DNA from: Mytilus trossulus
Lineage: Eukaryota
Direction of reading: 5' to 3'
Length of the DNA: 64,000 nucleotides
Assembly (NCBI RefSeq): GCF_036588685.1
Contig: NC_086386.1
Coordinates: 9,672,001 to 9,736,000 of the forward strand
Positions 3,001 to 56,599 of the stretch are shown here, piece after piece. Position 1 is the stretch's first letter. Each line of letters begins with the position of its first letter. The translations under genes were made by a program, and so were the position numbers. The notes under the pieces are model-generated. The model was not told where the DNA came from. It saw only the letters and a list, made by a program, of their open reading frames with translations, and searched no databases.

Positions 3001-6000
3001 CTCAACCCTCCCCCTAAACCTCTAACCAATGTAGAAAGGTAAACGCATAACAATACGCACATTAAAATGGAGTCTTTGTCAGAAGATGTAACCAAAGAAA
3101 ATATACAAAATGACAATAATACATAAATAATAACAGACTACTAGCAGTTAACTGACATGCCAGCTCCAGACTTCAATTAAACTGACTGAAAGATTATGAT
3201 TTCATCATATGAACATCAGGCACAATCCTTCCTGTTAGGGGTTTAGTATCATACCATCATTACATATATGAGAAGAACATAACCCGTGTCATGCCAACAA
3301 CTGTTTTTAGAATAAATGTGTTTAGTTCCGATGCAAATAAAATTGAGAATGGAAATGGGGAATGTGTCAAAGAGACAACAACCCGACCAAAATAAAAAAA
3401 CACAACAGCAGAAGGTCACCAACAGGTCTTCAATGTAGCGAGAAATTCCCGCACCCGGAGGCGTCCTTCAGCTGGCCCCTAAACAAATATATACTAGTTC
3501 AGTGATAATGAACGCCATACTAATTTCCAAATTGTACACAAGAAACTAAAATTTAAATAATACAAGACTAACAAAGGCCAGAGGCTCCTGACTTGGGACA
3601 GGCGCAAAAATGCGGCGGGGTTAAACATGTTTGTGAGATCTCAACCCTCCCCCTATACCTCTAACCAGTGTAGAAAAGTAAAAGCATAACAATACCTTAT
3701 CAGGGACTCAATATTAACACCAAAATATGCAATCTTTAATGACTTGACACCGTTATCGTAATTATATCCCTTCTTAATAAGTCTTTTCAAAGGTTTTGTT
3801 AGTTTCTGAGGTGAATACTGACACCTTTGTGCTTTATAAAGAATATTTCCATAAAAAATTGGATGTGAAATACCTGAACGTATAAGAAGTCTGCATGTTG
3901 AGCTATATTTACGAATGATGTCCTTATACTGATGATAAAATTTGGTAAATGTTTTGACTAGTTGGTCCGAGAACACAATTAATTTGTAGTGCATTTCTTT
4001 TAGAACATAAATGAAAATTTAAAAAATCCCACCTGCGCTTTCTCAATGAAATTTTTACAGTGTGTTGTACTACTTTTGGGACAAATTATATCAAAATTAT
4101 AGAAAACTTCATCGCCTCTAACTCAAAATATTTACAATTTTGTGTTTAGGGTGTCTTGAAATCTTTTGACAGCTTCCGAAGTGCTAATTTTTAACCTTTT
4201 TCAGCTGGACCAAATCACTACTTTCTTGTAAAATTCTTGACCTAAATTTTTTTACAGTGTAATTTCACCCCCCTTCTAACAATTTGAGGCATTAAACATG
4301 GAGAAATAAATTTGGAAGGGGTATAAACATTATTGGCAAGTAACCCACTGTTAACACTAGGGACTATATTCGTGAACAACGAAAATCAAGGGACGACAAT
4401 TGTGGTCTCGGACCAGTTTGTGATATTGAAAACCCTGGTGTAATAATTTTTCAGTCATACATAAATTTCTCTCGTTAAAATCTTAAACATTGTTACATAC
4501 ACAAGCGAATCGTACAAGTTATAATATATAAACACCGTAATATGGTGATAAGGGAACGTCACCATCTAAAAATGGATAATTATCGATAGGAAATGAAAAA
4601 TCATCCCTTTTATCATAAATTTTAGTATTCAGCTTTCCGTTAGTGATATAGATATCAAGATCGAGGAAAGGGCAGTGGTCATTGTTAGTATTAGCTTTAT
4701 TTAAAGTAAGTTCAACAGGATAAATTTTATTAATATACATACTGAAGTCGTCATTATTAAGAGCCAAAATATCATCCAAATATCTAAAAGTATTATTAAA
4801 TTTGTTTATTATGAAAGTATGTTCCCATTAAATTAAATTAAGAAACAAAAATTCTGTGAGTATTGCATAGCAATACATAGTCTCCTACCGATTAAAAATT
4901 CATTGTAATGGAAAGAAATTCTAAATTGATCAATATGTAACTTGTCATGGCGTACAAAAAATAGTGTTTACTACAAACAAGAGTGCACACACTGAAATGT
5001 CTCGCCTTCTATACTAATCCTTGATACTATCTTTGATAAACCTAAAGCTTTATTACAACTGTCACATAAACTCAACATTAACCAAGAAAATGAAACATTG
5101 ATCAATGAACCATGAAAATCAGGTCAAGGTCAGATAAACCATGCCAGGCAGACATGTACAGCTAACAATTCTTTAATACAACAAATATTATTGCTTATAA
5201 ATAAAGAAAAACAGACCAAAACACAAACACTTAAAACTTAGCAATAGACCGTGAAAATGAGGTCAAGGTCAAATAAAACCTGCGTAACCGACATAAAGAT
5301 CATAAAATATTTCCATACACCACATATAGTTGACCTAATGCATAAAGTATTAGAAAAATAGACCAAAACTAAAAAACTTAACTTTGACCACTGAACCATG
5401 AAAATGAGGTCAAGGTCAGATGACACCTGTCAGCTAGACATGTACACCTTACAATCATTCCATACACCAATTATAGAAGACCTATTGCATATAGTATAAG
5501 AAAAACAGACCAAAACACAAAAACTTAACTATAACCACTGAACCATGAAAATGAGGTCAATGTCAGATGACACCTGCCAGTTGGACATGTACACCTTACA
5601 GTCCTTCCATACACCAAATATACTAGACCTATTGCTTATAGTATCTGAGATATGGACTTGACCACGAAAACTTAACCTTGTTCACTGATCCCTGAAATGA
5701 GGTCGAGGTCAAGTGAAAACTGTCTGACAGGCTTGAGGACCTTGCAAGGTACGCACATACCAAATATAGTTATCCAATTACTTATAATAAGAGAGAATTT
5801 AACATTACAAAAAATCTTAACTTTTTTTTCAAGTAGTCACTGAACCATGAAAATGAGGTCAAGGACATTGGACATGTGACTGATGGAAAGTTCGTAACAT
5901 GAGGCATCTATATACAAAGTATGAAGCATCCAGGTCTTCTACCTTCTAAAATATAAAGCTTTTTAACGAAACACTAATGCGTTTGTTGGGTGACTTTATT

Positions 6001-22300: not shown

Positions 22301-25300
22301 AATTTTGAAAATTGTAATTTCACGATCGATTTCAATCAAAAGTTTTTTTTGTGAAAAGAGCACCAAAACAGAATGTAGAACGGACTGTTGTCATACACAT
22401 GTGAGCAAACTTGTACACAAAATATATGGATTACTCTAAATTTCTTGGTAATGTGGGTAAATCTATTGCACAACTGGATAACCAATAAACACTTTTCTAG
22501 TTATTTGAATATGTCAAATGAAAACTAACAATACTGTCAAATTAAAAATTGAATCATAAAATTTGATAAAGCAGGAATAATTGGACAAAAAATCTTCATA
22601 ATAATATAGTTATGCAGGTCAAAAGAACCAGTACTTGTTTTGTGTTAATCTATTTTAAAACATTTGCTTATTTTTCTTGTCATAAAACTATTTAGTTTAA
22701 AATAATGTTAAGCATAGTTTAAAATAATGTTAAGCATATAGTTAAAAATATTGTTAAGCATATAGTTTAAAATATTGTTAAGCATACATAAAGGAATAAT
22801 TTTTGTAAGTATTTAATGGCTTTTCAAACTGCTCTCAATCTATATGATCTAGGTTAATAAAAAATGTTTTCCTGAGTTTGTGTTAAAACATTTAATAGAG
22901 TACAGCTGCTGTTCACTATTTGTTCATAATATATAAGTAAAAGTCCTTGGTCTGCTTCATTGATTATTACAAAACATTTATTCATATCCATGTAAAAGTG
23001 TGAATACATGTGTTTTATTATGGTTCATCAATTTCACTATTTTCTCTTTAGAAAACAGAATTTTATGTACATGATAAAATCAAATTTATATAAATATATT
23101 CTTTGAGGATTTTGGTTCAGAAAAATTTATTTTTTAACCATATTAAACATTTTAGAAGACCACATTTATTGACTGATTGTTGCTTTATACATACATTGTT
23201 GTACATCATGTACTTACAACCTATACTTTTTGTATGTGTACAAATTGATAATCTTGATCAGTTATTATATAATTAAGGAAATTGATACAGATTTTCCACA
23301 TATCTTATAAAATTGAGAATGGAAAAGGGGAATATGTCAAAGAGACAACAACCCAACCAAAAAGCAGATATTAGATGAAGACCACCAATGGGTCTTCAAC
23401 CCAGCATGAAAGTCCTGTATCCAGAGGTTGGCGTCAGCCCTAAATAAAAATTTGTACAAGTTCTGTGAAAATGGAAGCCATTTTAAACCCTGAAACTATT
23501 TTTTGGGGATCAGGAGGCATCACAATCTAGGAAACAGGCATATGTTTTTAAGGTTTTAGACAGTATACATGTATATATAATATTTAATGTAAAATATGTT
23601 GTAAACCAAAAAATTATGTTACACATTATTTTATTCATTTGTTAAAAGTAATATTTCCGTATTAATTTCCCTGCAAAGTAACTATCAATGGACTTGATAA
23701 AGGTTGAAAATCATTATTTTGTGGAGGTGACAGTCATGACAGTGAAGAGTCTGTATTTGCATGTTTTTATCATGTTTATAAACCCTATGAGATTTGTGTT
23801 TTGGAATACAACAATAAATCAATCCCAAAGACTATGAATCAGTGAATAGTTATTTATAAAGATCAATATTGAGTGGGAAATGGTCAGTTAATTACAGCTT
23901 ATTGTCTTATTATGTGTATTGTATTATAGGATGAACAACCATGACTTACTTTTATGTCAATCAAGGTTGTTAATTATGCAAACAACACTTGTTTTGATTC
24001 TATACCTTCATTTAAGATTCTGAAATTCAATCATCACGTTGGAAGAAGTGAAAAATCTTTTATTTTCTTAAAATTCAAAATTGAACGATCGTTTCATGCC
24101 CCACCTATGATAGAAAAGGGGCATTATGTTTTCTGGTCTGTGTGTCTGTTTGTCCCAGCTCAGGTTAAAGTTTTTGGTCAAGTTAGTTTTTGATGAAGTT
24201 GAAGTCCAATCAACTTGAAACTTAGTACACAAGTTCCCAATGGTATGGTCTTTCTAATTTAAAGCCAAATGAGTGGGGCTTGTACCATTTTGATAAAGAT
24301 AACTAAAAAAAACCATTGCAAAGTCAATGGATGTATTTTGCAAAATAGTTAAACATTTTGTAAAATGTTAAATGGAATTAAAGAAATCAGCATAGCTGAT
24401 GATGATATTGTAACAATATATTCAATCTTTTGTATCATTTTGTAGGGAAAAGACAATGCAGAGGTGTTTGGTTTTATTGCTAGAGAAAATGGAAATGTTT
24501 TTGTGTGCCATGTGATGAAATGTCATTCCTTCTCTGTAGTAAGTAGACACACAAATACACACTATCACACACACTCTTAGGCTAGATTGGAAAATGGAAT
24601 TTTTTTTGGATATCATGATATTTCTCCCCTGTAAATTTTACAGAAAAACATTTTGTATTCTTCAGATAGAGGCAAAAAAACTAGAATTCAATTTCAAATG
24701 CATCGTATTGTATTCCTCATTCTTAAAATATTTGCTAATAGTCCCAAAGTTTTCTTATATTATCTCTTTCCTGTATATATGACATGTACTTAAACGTGAA
24801 ACTTGTTGGCCCAAACTCTCTGCTGGGAATGAATATGTCATGTATGTGATTTGGATCAGACAGGTGCTTGGATTTATTTTCAAAAAGTTTATGTCACACA
24901 TGATTCATGTTTACAAAAGGTTTCACTGCACACAGCATTGATGAAATAAGTCGTTCAATTTATGCTCTTTGCTCATTTGAAAATAAGTAGGCATTGTAAT
25001 TGTCAATAGCTTTAGTTAATGTGGATTAATTATTATTTGTTGGATAACAATTTTCGTGGAATTTATAGTTATAGGTGAACCACAAGATTAAATGTTCAAC
25101 AAATAGCAAATTTTCTTTATGCTTGTATGCAGTCTGAGGCCTTTTATAGCTGACTATGGGGAATGGGCTTTGCTCATTGATGAAGACTGTACGGTGACCT
25201 ATAGTTGTTAATTTCTGTGTCATTTTGGTCTCTTGTGGACAGTTGTCTCATTGGTGTGAATCATACCACATCTTCTTTTTATATTAGGCAAAACCACGAA

Positions 25301-28300
25301 ATGAAATATCCACCATCCACGAAAATTGGTACCCAATAATAAATGAATCCTCCATAGGTTTAAATTGTCAACATTATGTTGCCTGTCCATGTTGAAATGA
25401 TCAAAGAGCTGAAATTGATAGAACTTTTTCTATTATGAAAAAAATGACTTCTTTATATTGATCTTTTGAATCAATAAGACAGGTTCATATGACAGCCTCT
25501 TTTACATAAGAATTCTACAGAAAAATCAATTAAGTGCAAGTACCTTAAAATTAACTTCTTAATTTAAACGATATTGTGGAATTTCCTATCGTGCAACACA
25601 TTCTAAAATATAATTTTTTATCAACACCTTCATTGGATGTTTAATTATAATGTAAAACATGTTGACCCCATGTTTTGTTGGAAACAGAACACAAATTTGT
25701 TTACAAAGGGAAAGAAGAGTGTCATTTTAGAAATTCATATAAAAATAAAGTATTTACATATATGCAAAAGACGTTCAAAAATGCATCACATGGACATTTT
25801 AGTTTCTGGTTAATATTTTTGATTTCATGTCAGTATAAAATGTTGTAAGGATTGAAAACATGGGAAAGATATATTGTTTTTTTATATTTGTATTTAGCTG
25901 AGAGAATGGCATTTCACACAGATTCTAATGTTGATTTCCTTATTGTGCTAAAATAACAGGAAGTCATAAGACATATTCCTCAATATATTGGGAAAACATA
26001 TCAAACTTTATACGTTTATACACAATGTAGATCAATGAATGAATTATTTATGTCACTGTTTAACGAATCCCCTTTATGATGTTGCTGTATTATTCAAGGA
26101 TACATTGAAGATTTTTATTTGATTTTCTATACATTTTGGTAATTGTAAGGCATTAACATTGCTCTTGGTTTTACATGTACATGTTCAAGGTTAGTATCAC
26201 TTTCCAGGACAAAAGGGGTTTTTTTTTTTTTAGGGGGGGGGGGGGGTATTTTTTCTGCTCTGTTACATTTAAAAGAAATAATGATCAGGATTTTGATACT
26301 TTGTAATGTTTGGTTAGGGTAAATTTATAGTCATCAGATTTTCATTTTGTCAGTTTGAACTAAGTAAAGGAGTTACTTGTTGACAAGTAGACAGCAAATC
26401 AACAGCTCTTTCATTTGCTCTATCAGCAATGTGTTAATTGTATATTATCATATAGCCTTAGTTGAACATAAATCTTCATGGCTTTATTTTTCTGCCTCTG
26501 ACTTTACTCAGTATCTCCATATTTGAGTAACTTGTAACAAATTGTTCACATATATCTACATGTATATGTAAGGTCCTCTGAACTTTACAAAGGAAATAAT
26601 TAAGACAAAAAAGTACTGTCTGGTATTGAGTTATTTGTCAAAAATATTTTTGGGGAGATGGTCATTTTGTTTTCTTCTAAATTAAAGAAGAAATCAGTAT
26701 ATGTACATTTGGTATTTAATGTCCTACTTTTTATACTGATTTTAAAGCCTTACATGTTCTGTTATTTTGTAATTAAATTTAAAATACATAAGGACAATGT
26801 TTTACATGATTTTATATTTCTTGCTTGTACATGGCAGATTTTTGGGAATGTAGTTTTTTGTAAACAAACTTTCATATTGAAAAAAAAAAGACGTCTATAT
26901 AAACTACAAGTATAATATGCTTATTAAGTTACTGTTATTATTTTACAATGTTAAATTTTGATAAATTTACTCTGACCAAGGATTTGTATAGTAAGTCTTA
27001 CTATACAAATCCTTGCTCTGACAAATGATTTGTTTACTTTAAGACAGACGAGATCATGTCTGTTCTGAGATCAGCATTCCAGTGTGCGTATGAACAGACT
27101 CATAAACAGATCTGTATAATGTGTCCATTACACCAGCTACATAAGTTGTGTCAGGAACTGAACGGTAAGTTACAATACAAAGCAAATAAATAGACTCGCA
27201 GTCTGTGTTTGGATCTAAATGGTTATTGTGAATACAAAACTAGCAGCTAACTTCAGTCTGTGTCAGGAAAGTATATGTGTCAACATGGTCAAAATAAGAA
27301 CAAATACAAAACAGGCAACACAAAACAAAGGCTCTGTAAAAAGACTCCAAAAAACATAGGCTATGTTTTAAAAAACTTCAATCAGACAACACAAAAAAAG
27401 GCTATGTCAAAGCTCTTAGCAGGAAACACACAAATCAGACTATGTCAAAAATTCCAAGCATTCACTGTAAACAAGATGCATTTTTAATTCTTAATGACAT
27501 CTTGTTCATTTGATTACCATTTTTTATTATTCTCTGTGTTAGAAAGCTCAGGAAAAAGAAGTGCCTTCAAATTAGAAATTTATAAATACGCAGGCTACAA
27601 GGCTGTACAAAGCAAAGTCTTAAAGATTTATGTCCTATGTTTGTAGGATTATCTAGTCACAATGCATATGACCTCTTAGAGAAAAGACTTCACAATCTAC
27701 AGGAGAAAGATGTCGCTGATGTCCATAACCTTGTACAGGTACGGCTTAATTATAAATATTTAAAGTTATTTGGGATCTTCACGGGGGATGTAGGCTCATA
27801 TTCCCCTTCATTGTTTATATCTGTAGTTTCAGAATTCTAAACTTTTGCTGCACATGTAATTGTAGTTTGAGAATTTTAAACATTACTACACATGTCATTA
27901 TAGATTGAGAATTTAAAGAATTTACTGCACATGCAATTGTAGTTCCAGAATTTTAAACTTACTTTTTCACATGCAATTGTTTCAGAATTAAATGTTTTAA
28001 TGCACATGTAACTGTTGTTTGCATATTTTTAAATTTAACTACACATTTAATTCAAGATTTTACTACATGTGTAGTTTTATTTTGAAAATTTTAAGATTTT
28101 ACAAGTGGTTTTAGTTTTAGAATTTTAAACTTTTACTCAACATTTAATTTTAGTATGAAAAATTCTAAACATGTAATTGTGTGTTGAGAATTTAAACATT
28201 TACTACACATGTTATTGTAGATTGAGATAACTAAGTTTTACTACACCATGTACACATGTATTTGTAGTTTGAGAATTATAACTTTTACTGCACATGTAAT

Positions 28301-31300
28301 TATAGTTTGGGAATTTACACTTTTACTTATACACATGTAATTATAGTTTGGGAATTTACACTTTTACTTAATATACACATTTAATTATAGTTTGGGAATT
28401 ATAACTTTAACTGCACATGTTATTGTAGTTTGAGAACCCCCAGAGTTATGATGAGATGGTAGAGATACTAATGATTGGTCTGAGAAAGTTATGTGAAGTT
28501 AAACAGAAGGAACATACACATTTATCTGATGCTAATAAGTCATCTGTTAAAGCTGAGGTAACTGATCCGTACAAGCCATCTATAAGGACATCGGTAATTT
28601 AAAAAGAACAATAAAATCTGAAGCTAACACGTTTTTGTGAGAAAAGGGTAATTTTTAACAGAGAGAACTTACACATGAATCTGAAGACTGAAGCTAACAA
28701 GTGTTTTATGATTTGAAGCTAACATGTTGTCTTGGAGAAAAACTGATAACAGAATGAACTTACACAAAAATTTGAAGTTTACTACATGTTTTTTGTGAGA
28801 ACACTCATTATTTTTACGTTAACAACTTTGCTACACAACAATTTGACGCCAAAACAATTTTTTGTGAAAACACTCACGATTTTAACCGAAAATATTTTGA
28901 AGAAAGTGATTTATTTTTAACTGAAAATATTTTGAAGAAAGTATTATAATTTTGACAGAAAATATTTTTGAAGAAAGTAATAAAATTTTAACAGAAAATG
29001 CTTTAAAGCAAGTTATATGATTTTAACAGAAAATATAAATGATTAAAGGAAAGATCATACTAACTCTATATCTTGAACGACCTTTTTAGATAACCTTAGA
29101 AATTGGAGGACCTTCCCAACCAAAGAATCATTGAAATGTTCAGAAAAATAAGGCATTACTTATGATTATGAATGAATTCCAATGTTAATGCAGTTTACTT
29201 GATATTTTACAGTTTAACATTATTGAGAGTAAAGGGAAAGCAGCATTGTCATTTGACTCAATCAAGAACAAATGTAAGAAGAGTTTAACCACATCCTTTG
29301 AATCACTGATATTAAGGGTAAGATTCATTATAAATTCACATTAATGTTGTCTAACATTTTGACATTACCTGTTCTCCGACTTATCTTCAGTTGTCGACTG
29401 GTATTAAAGTTGGTGTTCAAAGACAATGTCGGCAATATTTTACAAATGCCCGGTTACATGATACATTATTGTTTTTCAAGACAACTTTCCGAGACCATTC
29501 TATGTTCTTCGTGTCCACATGTTTTTGGTACAATGTATTACTGTATACCTATGATGATTCATTTTATAGTTCAGTATTGTTTATTTATGATTTTAATAAA
29601 CATTTATATCAAATTTATAAAACTGGTTAACTGTTGAAACTACAACATTGAGATTGAATACTTCATTTGATTTACTAGTTAGATTTTAGATGTGTGCTCA
29701 TATATAATAAAAATTAAAAAAAACCTGACATGAAAATGGGAATGAAAAGTGCAACTTTACATAATGAATGCCACTCTGGAATATTTAAAGATTTGCCACT
29801 ATTTTGCCCATCGACCTGCTTAAAAATGAATATTGTTTGATTATATATTTATATACTAAAGAATGAAAACTTGAAAAAAAGGTTTCTATTAATAGGGTAA
29901 GAAGAAGGAAGAAGGGGAGAGAACTAGACACAGAAGTGGTACAGCAGTCAGTGAATATAGCTGGGCAAGATCGTTTGTAAGTATCAGAAAAATGGTATAC
30001 ACAAAAACTTAAATCAGAAACAGTACAATCAAGGCTCAAGCTTAAAGAAAATTTAGATCACAGGAAGCAAAATTCCTTATTTTTGTAATGTGTATGTGAA
30101 CCAACTTAAAATAGAATTTGCTATTGTTATCCATTCTATTTAAAAAGAGTCCTTGTTGGTTTTTGTTCTAAAGAAGATAAGGTAGTCCTAATGCAAATGT
30201 ATGTTAAAACATTCTACCATACTAAAAAAGGTACATATTACAAGTTTCATACTGCTGTAAGATATTGCTTTATTATTCACTTTTTTTATGCCCCACCTAC
30301 TATAAGTTATATGGTTCGCTACTGACCCCATACGGATCCATCGAGGGTAAGTAAAATCCATAGGGGGTGAGGCCAGAGGCCGAGTCCCCTATGAATTTTA
30401 TTCACCCTCTATGGATCCGTAGGGGGTCAGTAGTTAACCGTATAACGAATTTATTGGACGCTGGACTTTTTCTGCAGCGTTTTGTTGAAAAATAAACAAT
30501 GAAAAACAACAACATTAATAGATTACGTCGCCATTAACACGTCATGAACCCCATATGAAACTTACTAACCCCATACGGTCTCATAGGGGGTCACCACGTG
30601 ACGGAGTTTAACCAATCACAAAGTGATAATTTATCTGTGGTCCGATAAGATGGTAGAGGGGCATTATGTTTTCTGGTGCATACATCTGTTCGTTCGTCTG
30701 TGCATCCATGGCATCTGTCACGCTTCATGTTAAAGTTTTTGGTCAAGGTAGTTTTTGATGAAACATATTACACTTGTTGCTTATGATATGATCTTTCTAA
30801 TTTTAAAGCCAAATTAGAGTTTTGACCAAATTTCAGGGTTCATTGAACATGGAAAATGATAATGCCAGTGGTGCATGGGTGTACTTTGGACACATTCTTG
30901 TTTATACCATGAAATAAAACAGCTACATTAGACCTGTAAAAATAAGGTTATACCCTTTCCTTATAAAAGCTATCTTCCATATAGATAAATAATGTATTTG
31001 TCACATATAAAGCTTGAATCTATTGTCAGCCCCGATCAGCAGTTTTCCAAAATATCACATTATCAGCTTGAATTATAGTGAATCAACCACTGATTTCTGT
31101 CGAACAAAAACCTGTTTGAACTTGGTTGATTTCAAGCAAAAATTAAATCAATTTTTTTTAATTCCCTAAGCATTTACTATAAATATGCTCTTTTAGTTAT
31201 GTAAAGCATCATACATGGTTTTTATGCCCCACCTAGGAGCATTATGTCTGGTCTGTGCTTCCATTTGTCCCTTAACCCAACCCTTGGTTTGTTTGTCTGT

Positions 31301-49900: not shown

Positions 49901-50139
49901 ATAGATTTAAAAATACAACTATAAAAATCCTTGGTTATTCATGTATGTAAATACTTTTTTTATTTCACAGAAGAAGAAGAAAATGGTAGAGTTTGTTGAT
50001 TTTTTTAAAATAAAAGATAGTTCTTTTTCTGTTCATTTACTGGATAATATATAGTTCTCTAAACTATCAAGGACTTATTGAAATATTTCAATTTTGTGGG
50101 AAACAAAAAGCAAAAGTCCTAAAAGTAAAAACACATATG

Positions 50140-52779: not shown

Positions 52780-52898
52780 CAATCTAATTAAAATATTGAT
52801 CTCTGATTACGTTATACTGCAATCTAATTAAAATATTGATCTCTGATTACGTTATACTGCATATAACGTAATCAGAGATCAATATTTTAATTAGATTG
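52780..52898. repeat. Perfect 40-bp tandem duplication plus 37-bp inverted arm, flanked by CATCTA direct repeats
   Basis: CAATCTAATTAAAATATTGATCTCTGATTACGTTATA at 52780 and 52820, its reverse complement at 52862-52898, and ATCTACATCTACATCT on both sides. Confidence 0.9.
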
Positions 52899-53267
52899 AT
52901 CTACATCTACATCTTACGGCGATCCATCACTACATTGATGACTATACGTCGGCACATCACATCTTAATAAAAAGTAACAATCTAATGAGTGCATTAATCA
53001 AAAATTAAATTCGTGCAAAAAATAAACAATAAATAAAAATAACTCATTTTCATATATGTACAAAGCTTTTATGAATTTTATTAAAGAAAATGGAATGTAT
53101 ATCATAATACCAAAATCTTGTGGTTCTGATTTTACCTTTTATCATTACAAGGGAAGAGATGCTTCCCAGATTGATTACTTCGTGCAGAGCAGTGACCTGA
53201 TATCAACATACAGAACATTCGACAGGGAACCAACTATACTAACTCATCTACTCACAATCCCATTCTT

Positions 53268-56024
53268 GTGAAGACACCGTGTGAGATAAAACTATCAAAT
53301 CAAAGAGATGGAAAACTAAATCAGTTAAGGATCAACTGGAATAAGATAGACAAAAAAGGATATGAAGAAGAAGATGAATCTAGATTAGCACTCATAGATG
53401 ACAATGAACTCATACTGACATGTGACAATATATCAGATAATATCAATTCCATTTGTAAGATACTGTCAGAATCAGCAGTAAAGAATAGTAGTGTTCCTAT
53501 AAATAGAAGGAAAAGAACAGGAAAACCAAGCAAAAAACCATGGGCGCCAGAAATTGCTAGTGCGGCGGCTAAGTCAAGCAAGATACACCATGCAAAATGG
53601 AAAGCTGCGGGCAAACCAACAAATCCAGAAAACGAGATTTATAAAAACAATAAGAACTCTAAGAAAAAACTAAGATCACTCCAAAGGAGGCTTGAAGCGA
53701 CAAATAGAAACAACAAATACCAGGAACTAATGGAACTGAACGAAAGGAACGACAAAGGGTTTTACAAACTGGTGAGGAAACAACGTGACCCGTCGAACCC
53801 CTCAGGATCATCTTTGATATTTAAAGATAATCTTTTGAATGACCAAATTGAAATTACAGAGGCATTCGCTCAATACTTTGAAGAATTCTCAACACCATGT
53901 GAAAATGTGAACTTTGACAATGATCACTTTACAAATGTAAAGCGAGACATCACAAGTCTCAATGAACTATTTAAACATTCAAAAAACCATAACATACCAG
54001 TAACTACAACGGAAGAGGTAAAGAAAACTGTGCTATCGTTCAAAAATGGAAAATCCCCAGATGAAGAAAACATCACCGCTGAACATGTTAAGTTTGGAGG
54101 ACAAACACTCATTTATATCTTGACAAATATCATCAACTTCATCTTTCAAAATCTTGATATCCCATCTTTACTAAAGAGTGGAATAGCCTGTCCAATATTG
54201 AAAAAGAATAAAGGAAAAAAGAAAACGGATCCAAACTCCTACAGAAAAATTGTCATCACTATGTTCATTGGAAAAATTGTTGAGAAGCTACATCTTCAAA
54301 ACAACCAAGATTCAATAAACAAACAACAAAGTAGACTTCAGAAAGGATTTACCAAAGGACAAATGCCTGCAATTGCTGCCTTAATATTCACAGAGCTTAT
54401 AACAGAGGCAAACAAGTCAAACTCAAGCCTGTATATAGCACTTATGGATGCCAAGAAGGCGTTTGATATCCTTTGGCACTTGGGTCTACTTAGAGAAATG
54501 TATAACTTTGGACTACATGGGGACAACTGGCTATTCTTCAAAAACTGGTACGAGGAAGTTACATCAAAAATAAAATGGAATGGAAACATCTCAAGACCTA
54601 CCCAAGAACAACAAGGAGTGAGACAGGGAGTCGTATGGTCACCCACTGCTTACAAATTTTTTATCAATAAACTGTTAAAGACATTTGAGAAAATACAATT
54701 GGGGGCATATATTGGATGTACCTACTGCGGCATCCCAACTGTGGCCGACGATGTCACCTTCATATCGAAGAGCCCCACTGAGCTCCAAACAATGTTAGAC
54801 GTACAAGCATATTATGCGAACAAACAGAGATATTTACTAAGTGAACAAAAGTCGACGATTCTAGTACTCAACGACAAAGAAAATAGATCATGGTCACTAA
54901 ACAACAAAGACTTATCAACTTCTGAATCAGCTATGCATCTAGGAATTGAAAGGGACTCTACATCGAAATCAGGCTCAAAAGAGGTGATATGCAAGCGAGT
55001 GATTACAGCTAGAAAGACCACTTACTCTCTAATGGGTGCAGGGCTCCACGGGCTAAACGGTGTAAATCCACATGTTTCAGCACACCTTATTCAGATTTAT
55101 GTGATACCCAGATTGCTGTATGGCTTAGATGTAATAAACATTTCAAGAAATGACATGGAGAAACTAGAGGTGTACCATAGGAAACTCGTGAAACAAATTC
55201 AACACCTTCCAATAAGATCAGCCAACTCAGCATCTCTCTTTCTACTAGGACGAATTCCTATCATAGGTGAAATTCACAAGAAAATCCTTAAAACATTCGG
55301 GAATATCATCAGGAACGACGAATCAGTGGAAAAAGATATTGCGATCCGTCAGCTTGCCATGAAATCAATCTGGTTTCTAAAAGTAGCCGAAATTGCGGAT
55401 CAATATAACTTACCTTCTCCGCATGATCTCATTGACAACCCACCAATAAAAGAAACTTGGAACAAGCTGGTCAATCAAACAATTAGCAGTCATTTCATTT
55501 TAACTCTACAACAAGAAGCAGAGAATAAATCTACTTTAAAATATTTGAACTTAAGTGTTACAGTACCAGAAAAACCACACAACATCTGGACAAGCTGTGG
55601 TAATGAACCGTTTGCAATAATTATGGCACACTTAAAAGCCAAAATTGCAGTGGGAACAATCGTACTGCAAAGTTCAAAAGCAAAACATTCAAAGTCAGAA
55701 GTGTCACCAATTTGTCAGTTATGTCATATTGAGACGGAGGATATGATTCACTTTTTGATTAAATGCACAGTGCTGAAAACAACTAGATCACCATTTTTGC
55801 AGGAGTTAAAAACCTTTGTCAAAACATGCTTGAGAGGAGAGAATGATGAGACATTATTCCATGAATTGTTCAATAACAACGAGTATTTAGCTAGATTGAT
55901 CATTGACTGTTCGTTTTTCCACTTTCTCAAAAATACAGAGAAAACTCGGATAGAAACAATCTCAAGAGGCTTATGCTACAAACTATACCAAAAGCGAGCA
56001 ACTATATTGGCCGAAAATTCGTAA
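53268..56024 (+). CDS. LINE ORF2 reverse transcriptase (N-terminally truncated, likely non-functional copy)
   Basis: RT motifs KSPDEENITAEH, NSYRKI, QKGF, DAKKAFD, QGVRQG..WSP, VADD, HLGI; C-terminal CQLC-x7-H-x4-C. Confidence 0.9.
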   Translation: MKTPCEIKLSNQRDGKLNQLRINWNKIDKKGYEEEDESRLALIDDNELILTCDNISDNINSICKILSESAVKNSSVPINRRKRTGKPSKKPWAPEIASAAAKSSKIHHAKWKAAGKPTNPENEIYKNNKNSKKKLRSLQRRLEATNRNNKYQELMELNERNDKGFYKLVRKQRDPSNPSGSSLIFKDNLLNDQIEITEAFAQYFEEFSTPCENVNFDNDHFTNVKRDITSLNELFKHSKNHNIPVTTTEEVKKTVLSFKNGKSPDEENITAEHVKFGGQTLIYILTNIINFIFQNLDIPSLLKSGIACPILKKNKGKKKTDPNSYRKIVITMFIGKIVEKLHLQNNQDSINKQQSRLQKGFTKGQMPAIAALIFTELITEANKSNSSLYIALMDAKKAFDILWHLGLLREMYNFGLHGDNWLFFKNWYEEVTSKIKWNGNISRPTQEQQGVRQGVVWSPTAYKFFINKLLKTFEKIQLGAYIGCTYCGIPTVADDVTFISKSPTELQTMLDVQAYYANKQRYLLSEQKSTILVLNDKENRSWSLNNKDLSTSESAMHLGIERDSTSKSGSKEVICKRVITARKTTYSLMGAGLHGLNGVNPHVSAHLIQIYVIPRLLYGLDVINISRNDMEKLEVYHRKLVKQIQHLPIRSANSASLFLLGRIPIIGEIHKKILKTFGNIIRNDESVEKDIAIRQLAMKSIWFLKVAEIADQYNLPSPHDLIDNPPIKETWNKLVNQTISSHFILTLQQEAENKSTLKYLNLSVTVPEKPHNIWTSCGNEPFAIIMAHLKAKIAVGTIVLQSSKAKHSKSEVSPICQLCHIETEDMIHFLIKCTVLKTTRSPFLQELKTFVKTCLRGENDETLFHELFNNNEYLARLIIDCSFFHFLKNTEKTRIETISRGLCYKLYQKRATILAENS

Positions 56025-56250: not shown

Positions 56251-56599
56251 GTGTCCCCAAGGATTTGTATAGTTATAACTATACAAATCCTTGGGGACAC
56301 TTACTAAAGACTAAAGACGTCCAAGGATTTGTATAGTTATAACTATACAAATCCTTGGGGACACTTACTAAAGACTAAAGACGTTTTATTATGATGTCTT
56401 TAGTCTTTAGTAAGTGTCCCCAAGGATTTGTATAGTTATAACTATACAAATCCTTGGGGACACTTACTAAGGACTAAAGACATCATAATAAAACACTCAC
56501 ATATTACGGAATAGTTATATATATACACACAAATGTAAATCTTATCACACGGTATCATTAGGTTAAGAAGGATCTAACTATACAAATCCTTGGTGTCCC
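56251..56599. mobile_element. 335-bp templated fold-back insertion with P-like termini and 7-bp TSD in the LINE 3' region
   Basis: GTGTCCC|CAAGGATTTGTATAGT ... ACTATACAAATCCTTG|GTGTCCC. It contains three 36-bp palindromes (56258, 56322, 56421) plus inverted and direct copies of the left flank. Confidence 0.75.

Follow-up and report, generated by a model that had tools for sequence, protein, structure and literature searches.

A 39-bp palindrome in a Mytilus trossulus intron as a probable end-joining scar of an excised P-superfamily transposon

A perfect 39-bp palindrome lies at positions 26977-27015 of the analysed window, the 64,000-nt stretch C14:9672001-9736000 of the 1.3-Gb genome of Mytilus trossulus. 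With a probability of about 0.85, it is the end-joining scar of an excised P-superfamily transposon, for which a cut 20 bases inside each terminal inverted repeat (TIR) is predicted. It is probably a dead end, unable to move again, that affects the host gene little if at all.

Structure of the palindrome

A script run on the window resolved the palindrome into 19-bp arms around a single central T, enclosed by the direct repeat CTCTGAC, which was detected at a length of 7 only when flank lengths of 4-11 were tried. The original prediction had given the sequence and coordinates of 26970-27022 correctly, and its 7-bp target-site duplication (TSD) is borne out by this sole repeat length; the 39-bp palindrome that it described also stands, with arms of 19 bp rather than the 16 bp assigned to them. 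The segments are as follows.

26970-26976 (+): left TSD copy CTCTGAC, from the sequence by script
26977-26995 (+): left arm, the first 19 nt of the parent TIR with A at position 17, matching the A-variant ends on C29 and C8
26996-27015 (-): right arm, the first 20 nt of the A-variant TIR, a 20-nt match to three A-variant ends
27016-27022 (+): right TSD copy, from the sequence, with a putative use as branch point

Compared with the A-variant TIR, the arms matched over 19 and 20 nt, whereas only 16 nt matched the T and G variants; a 21-nt match of the right arm to one variant end was also found. The 7-nt centre equals TIR positions 17-19 of the left end followed by 17-20 of the right end, and the palindrome holds no foreign base, except where the central T is taken as inserted between arms of 19 nt each. 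The junction can be read as 19+20 or as 19+1+19, and many scar junctions are similarly ambiguous by 1-2 nt. In keeping with a P-type footprint, both TSD copies are kept at this locus, with TIR tips alone between them.

As had been claimed, the ends at 56258 and 56592 have the same outer 16-mer. A search of the window allowing up to 3 mismatches returned 13 matches to this 16-mer, compared with a mean of 1.52 and a maximum of 6 in shuffles, and 9 of them were exact (2 at the palindrome and 7 at 56258-56592). Decayed single ends of the same TIR were also observed at 5008-5023 and 49918-49933 (-), with 2 and 1 mismatches, respectively, indicating that older scars exist outside the exact-match counts given below. 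In addition, the window contains an unrelated 79-bp perfect AT-rich hairpin at 52820-52898, with arms of at least 35 bp.

Genome-wide class of two-armed scars

Both 16-mers were found 0-20 nt apart at 587 sites genome-wide (exact matches), with 0 sites for the reversed control pattern, confirming the very abundant class of tiny hairpins that had been suggested from two loci. Exact single 16-nt ends numbered 3012. A sample consisting of the first 50 of the 587 sites and the sites from the first 100 rows of a listing, all on contig C1, comprised 87 paired units and 21 unpaired ends; the 50 sites became 49 after a duplicate (L148) was merged with L143.

Results revealed 32 distinct centres and unit lengths of 33-48 bp in these 49 sites, in place of a uniform MITE-like length or centre. 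The centres thus differ between sites, as the original prediction had stated, although they are not free sequence and instead consist of TIR bases 17-20. Its proposal of excision footprints is supported by this diversity together with a longer parent element (described below), and neither a few fixed centres lacking a longer parent nor a lack of general 7-bp TSDs was found. An exact 7-bp TSD was present at 38 of the 49 sites, and one with at most 1 mismatch at 45; exact flank repeats of 4-6 or 8-10 bp were detected at none of them, including the canonical P/THAP9 8-bp TSD (0/49). The consensus over 62 exact TSDs, with both strands counted, was RTWWWAY. Furthermore, asymmetric units (e.g., 20+7 and 17+14) were still found within intact TSDs.

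Some scars recurred with identical flanks at several places (L004/L005, L008/L143/L148 and L200/L205/L209). These copies appear to have been carried inside other repeats or duplications, so that the scar counts do not all represent independent events. At C3:34754500-34755300, a scar arm has grown into a 26-bp tandem array with about 9 TIR tips, which is possibly the seed of a minisatellite.

The window contains a second scar of the same family:

56251-56599 (no strand): TSD GTGTCCC; three 18+18 joins; 20-nt right arm at 56573-56592

This locus begins with an 18+18 join, continues with inverted and direct copies of the left flank (25-102 nt) interleaved with two further 18+18 joins, and ends in the 20-nt arm. 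It looks like the outcome of repeated rounds of templated end-joining, and the segment 56258-56592 resembles the templated insertions of fly P-element junctions. A reverse transcriptase domain (PF00078, E 7.9e-24) was found in a 942-codon frame at 53196-56021 (+), which stops about 230 bp before this scar.

Parent elements of the P superfamily

A search of the genome with the P-transposase profile PF21787 yielded 41 matches among 64 candidates scored. No TIRs were found within 1.5 kb of the first 30 matches, and 20-30 kb around 10 matches was examined for them. The 16-mer proved to be the start of a perfect 35-bp TIR on a 10.4-kb element (C3:78369771-78380206) and a 10.6-kb element (C12:49652222-49662776), both with exact 7-bp TSDs. 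Also found were a rearranged copy on C5, single ends on both C1 and C13 and, on C14, a 9.9-kb relative that has diverged; the C3, C5 and C12 copies are about 97% identical. Exact 7-bp TSDs enclose the elements on C3, C12, C14, C29, C2, C4 (two) and C8 (two), the C11 element has a TSD with one mismatch, and the inner left end of the rearranged C5 copy has none. The longer parent that had been anticipated thus exists as a family of 10.2-10.6-kb elements with 35-bp TIRs plus derivatives of about 4 kb.

TIR position 17 is T, A or G depending on the subfamily. Parents with A at both ends were identified at C29:3422082-3432305 (10.2 kb, with no frame of 200 codons) and as two 4.2-kb copies on C8, and a parent with A at one end and T at the other on C11. 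Among 100 of the 101 places listed, 10 two-ended elements were exact to 23 nt at either end; with 5 more that have one imperfect end, about 15 two-ended elements were seen, compared with 587 two-armed scars, both figures being lower bounds that depend on exact matching. At C5:9022054-9042267, a full element is embedded in a larger inverted arrangement with two extra 21-nt TIR tips that share a common flank 7-mer, possibly an aberrant transposition product.

P-type transposase frames occur in several of the long copies. The C14 copy harbors a single 913-codon frame (L081:3442-6180) in which PF21787, PF21788 and PF21789 all score over the cut-off, and in the C3 copy the P-transposase domains are split across two frames. 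The sole PDB match up to E 1 was the fly P transposase 6P5A (E 5.4e-14). The FDE, CDG and DPLE motifs of the parent align with fly FDE, SDL and DIVE, the first in a weak alignment segment, and we take the aligned acidic motifs to correspond to fly residues D230, D303 and E531. These three residues form the acidic catalytic triad of the fly enzyme (PMC7776569, partial text). P-superfamily transposases require GTP for cleavage and strand transfer, and a putative counterpart of this requirement in the parent is represented by the domain match to PF21788 only. The closest named homologue is a Mytilus protein (94% identity); other close homologues occur in mussels, scallops, oysters and other bivalves, and distant ones in a hemichordate, Hydra and sponges.

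No THAP domain was detected in the long ORFs, in 4 homologues, in the precomputed domains of 70 homologues, or in the 52 short frames with Cys that were scanned out of 95 within the first 10 kb of two elements (overlaps with long ORFs left out); an exon that is short or split could have escaped this search. On the opposite strand, the elements carry another ORF, of 413-433 codons (L081:8258-9556 (-), also in the C3, C12 and C13 copies), and the C2H2 zinc-finger matches of its 433-codon version were all below threshold; such a C2H2-like protein could be a DNA-binding substitute for THAP. With no THAP found, a 7-bp TSD and a 20-nt limit, the parent is best classified, as far as its sequence indicates, as a member of the P superfamily that is not a canonical P element.

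A second P-like group of 8.1-8.4 kb, with CACAGG ends, TIRs of 192-286 bp and 8-bp TSDs, was also identified (C5:43264861-43273009, L085, L114 and L115; C11:4354035-4362482, L091, L110 and L111), and its C5 copy has a convergent ORF with a Pif1 helicase domain match. Its short two-armed remnants number 17, with irregular centres and an exact 8-bp TSD in 1 of 5 read. This group was dropped as a control for cut length, as these 17 irregular copies give no readable cut length.

Retained arm lengths and the predicted cut

Exact TIR-end matches genome-wide fell from 3012 at 16 nt to 1235 at 19, 987 at 20, 236 at 21 and 101 at 23. Continuation was 80% from 19 to 20 nt and 24% from 20 to 21 nt (78% and 15% without the 101 long ends); both steps require A, so the cliff between 20 and 21 is not explained by base composition. 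Direct equal-arm joins comprised 41 of 20+20, 4 of 19+19 and 14 of 18+18, and 3 of these 14 belong to the one locus in the window and 3 cluster on C13. The excess of 18+18 over 19+19 joins points either to a preference in repair or to a second, minor cut at 18. In the 98 arms of the 49 C1 sites, matches extended to 16 nt in 11, 17 in 15, 18 in 24, 19 in 10, 20 in 30, 21 in 6 and 22 in 2, with the counts at 17 and 18 inflated because three letters were allowed at position 17. In the C1 sample, the free base next to 19-nt arms was A 27 times and T 8 times among 37, and next to 20-nt arms it was A 4 times among 13. Retained arms therefore have their limit and main mode at 20 nt, instead of the peak at 16-17 bp originally expected, and reach beyond the canonical-P 17-nt staggered cleavage, as seen indirectly through repair products. 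The same products suggest that the inner nick likely falls between TIR bases 20 and 21.

The two arms derive from two ends. Six of the 41 20+20 joins carry different position-17 bases on the two arms, as in the A/T parent on C11, which argues against one end folding back; a snap-back origin from one end was ruled out by these joins together with direct TSDs on both sides. Of the 30 long ends (at least 23 nt) that were read, 15 lead into elements and 5 are diverged or other; the remaining 10, among them 3 copies of a single scar, belong to scars in which one arm is longer, so that some tails were extended by repair synthesis. One locus labelled as a scar by script (L196) was rejected, as its flanks mismatch and it reads as a diverged element end.

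These long-armed scars bear on the strongest of the alternatives, namely that the units are extreme internal deletions from aborted sister-copy gap repair, in which 20 marks a stop of synthesis beyond a cut at 17-18 nt. Repair synthesis is indeed evident in the 10 of 30 long ends whose single arm extends to 23-49 nt, and 18 is a second mode both in the sampled arms (24/98) and in the direct joins (14). Gap repair, however, would be expected to spread the lengths, in conflict with a one-base cliff between 20 and 21 and with 20+20 joins ten times commoner than 19+19; moreover, long-armed scars are often closed by a 20-nt partner (e.g., L200 and L204), and, irrespective of the scars, an internal repeat of the TIR is consistent with a nick at 19-20. 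This alternative is thus considered improbable.

The internal repeat consists of TIR bases 2-8 recurring at 20-26 (7 nt, offset 18), which was the best-pairing offset in all 9 ends tested. Repeats of at least 7 nt occurred in 10 of 20000 shuffles at offset 18 and in 129 of 20000 at any offset. With a nick at 20, base 21 would face base 3 and six consecutive Watson-Crick pairs would form; the repeat alone permits a nick after 19 or 20. In the fly, according to a hand comparison, bases 4-8 can be paired with 19-23 in the same register if two G-T wobbles are allowed.

Taken together, excision and end-joining could have produced the palindrome as follows. An A-variant element would have inserted at CTCTGAC and duplicated this target. 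The transposase would then have cut one strand at the element tip and the other inside the TIR, by analogy with the fly enzyme, which cuts at the 3' end of the element and, on the other strand, 17 bp inside the TIR (PMC7776569, partial text). Each chromosome end would thereby have kept an identical 3' single-stranded tail corresponding to the first 20 TIR bases, like the 17-nt non-complementary 3' tails of fly donor ends (PMC2895639, partial text). Joining of these non-complementary tails after the loss of one base, followed by fill-in, would give 19+20 = 39 bp, and the scar would be palindromic because both tails have the same sequence. In fly junctions (PMC2895639, Table 1, partial text), arms reach and never pass 17, with blunt, microhomology and insertion joins; the fly arm limit equals the tail, so that an upper arm limit marks the cut, and the same logic leads to 20 in the mussel.

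The position of the nick may in turn be set by the TIR sequence, since with bases 2-8 recurring at 20-26 the freed 5' end (base 21) could pair opposite base 3. Such pairing would resemble the fold-back helix of the fly transposase structure, in which the looped-out transferred strand returns to pair with the non-transferred strand in its 5' part; transposition requires this helix (PMC7776569, partial text). As a wider and tentative proposal, held at somewhat less than even odds, P transposases in general may set the nick through a TIR repeat, with the stagger equal to the offset plus 2 (18+2 = 20 in the mussel; 15+2 = 17 in the fly, by a hand fit with wobbles), a THAP-less bivalve clade with 7-bp TSDs may cut at 20, and the germ line may mostly end-join, leaving about 40 or more scars per surviving element as a record from which the cut can be read.

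Host gene, splicing and population alleles

The palindrome lies near the end of an intron of a protein-coding gene.

24539-27043 (+): host intron holding the scar, 2505 nt, GT..AG; joint 24538-27044 in X9, X10 and X14
27044-27164 (+): coding exon, joint at 27044; donor at 27165 read from the sequence rather than from a listed joint

Contigs of X9, X10 and X14 continue to exons at 28427, 29211, 31528, 32591 and 33419. These splice runs, from two studies, are contigs only and of guessed RNA type; in a fourth RNA-type run (X6), no joint at 27044 was found among the matches listed, which carries no weight either way. Frames downstream of the 27044 exon matched DUF3350 and RabGAP-TBC (6 of 65 frames, related weak matches included), and a PTB/PH-like region upstream of it is a lead only, with ESM Atlas scores below 0.9; single host exons gave no match in Pfam or PDB. 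This architecture (PTB/PH-like, DUF3350, RabGAP-TBC) is presumably that of a TBC1D1/TBC1D4-like gene.

The branch-point consensus is YNYTRAC, and the right TSD copy CTCTGAC fits it, with its A at 27021, 23 nt before the acceptor. This copy may therefore serve as the branch point. The duplication kept one 7-mer at the original distance from the acceptor, which would explain tolerance of the scar.

For population alleles, short contigs of four DNA runs (X1-X4) from two studies were searched. X1 has the same hairpin, covered through its centre, on haplotypes that differ at 8 positions of the flanks; in X2, X3 and X4, flank contigs extend into an arm. In X3, a single contig of depth 4 with a diverged flank lacks the hairpin and joins 26974 to 27019; it skips 44 nt as against 46 for a clean empty site and is weak evidence of an empty allele. 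A full-element allele at the 26977-27015 site was not seen in the X1-X4 contigs. In each run, dozens of contigs stop at 26977 or 27015 and have flanks unrelated to the site, indicating that the family is abundant there too. The acceptor itself is polymorphic, with AAG at window position 27041 and TAG in X1 and X3, and 27023 A>T travels along.

The original prediction had suggested that an RNA hairpin could affect splicing of this exon, an effect that finds no support in the 24538-27044 joint with GT..AG borders in three of four RNA-type runs, although a subtle one is conceivable. The related explanation that the hairpin has been retained for tuning the splicing of the 27044 exon, which concerns later use and not origin, is very improbable. 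The RNA hairpin is stable (z -5.2), as expected of any perfect palindrome, its stem end adjoins a branch-point-like 7-mer present on both sides, and it is unchanged in X1 despite the 8 flank differences, with arm-bearing contigs in X2, X3 and X4. Against this, the downstream 7-mer keeps its original distance from the acceptor, the exon is joined at 27044 in three of the four runs, a hairpin-less allele (X3) probably exists, and both X1, on a contig bearing the scar, and X3 have TAG in place of the weak AAG acceptor.

Comparison with known systems

The mussel family shares with the fly P element a homologous transposase core with a GTP-binding insertion and TIRs of the form CA...TG (PMC7776569, partial text), as well as scars built as TSD, TIR tip, TIR tip and TSD with blunt, microhomology or templated joins (PMC2895639, partial text). 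The bases past the limit are A-G-G in both TIRs, with the fly bases taken from a guide sequence (PMC11368186, partial text). In contrast, the limit is 20 instead of 17 nt, the TSD 7 instead of 8 bp, the TIR 35 instead of 31 bp and the element about 10 instead of 2.9 kb; no THAP domain was detected in the mussel elements, an extra opposite-strand zinc-finger-like ORF is present, and natural scars occur by hundreds to thousands, outnumbering elements. Galileo of Drosophila is similar in its preference for a 7-bp palindromic TSD (GTATTAC/GTANTAC, compared with RTWWWAY in the mussel; PMC4168063, partial text) and differs in its long, internally repetitive TIRs and THAP domain, as opposed to 35-bp TIRs in the mussel. 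Natural 15-bp footprints of Galileo or BuT5 were looked for in the literature and not found, the word 'footprint' occurring 0 times in PMC4168063 and PMC3698922. Zebrafish Pdre2/THAP9 is likewise a P-like transposon outside insects with internally deleted copies, but it has a 13-bp TIR, an 8-bp TSD and a THAP domain (PMC10983969, partial text).

Like MITEs, the mussel units are short, non-coding and present in many copies with TIR and TSD; in contrast to them, they vary in size and centre, do not contain the inner half of the TIR and are capped in length at about twice 20 nt. That they are minimal palindromic MITEs, copied or moved intact by P transposase, is the least probable of the explanations considered, for although the two commonest centres each recur at 5 of 49 sampled, unrelated sites, 27 identical T/T 40-mers exist genome-wide and short units greatly exceed full elements, this reading conflicts with the 32 centres and 33-48-bp lengths in 49 sites, the asymmetric units (20+7, 17+14) in intact TSDs, the templated insertions at 56258-56592, the absence from the units of the inner TIR half, which is bound by the HTH domain of the fly enzyme (PMC7776569, partial text), and the duplex of at most 6 bp that a unit of up to 40 bp would keep if cut with a 17-20-nt stagger at both ends.

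Biological significance

P-element scars of this form are already known from fly experiments. A search of the main text of open-access papers found no account of P scars occurring naturally across a genome, of a stagger of 20 nt or of this family of mussel elements. The single locus is ordinary, and nothing important is shown for the host gene. The scars are easily mis-annotated as MITEs, and they supply hundreds to thousands of small, partly polymorphic perfect palindromes, which are potential population markers. Furthermore, natural scars allow the cut geometry of a P clade not studied before to be read, with some probability, in place of a biochemical assay, and they tie the position of the cut to a feature of the TIR, predicting that a shift of the inner repeat would move the nick. 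Long open transposase frames survive in the genome (e.g., the 913-codon frame on C14), which makes this nick-shift prediction feasible to test.
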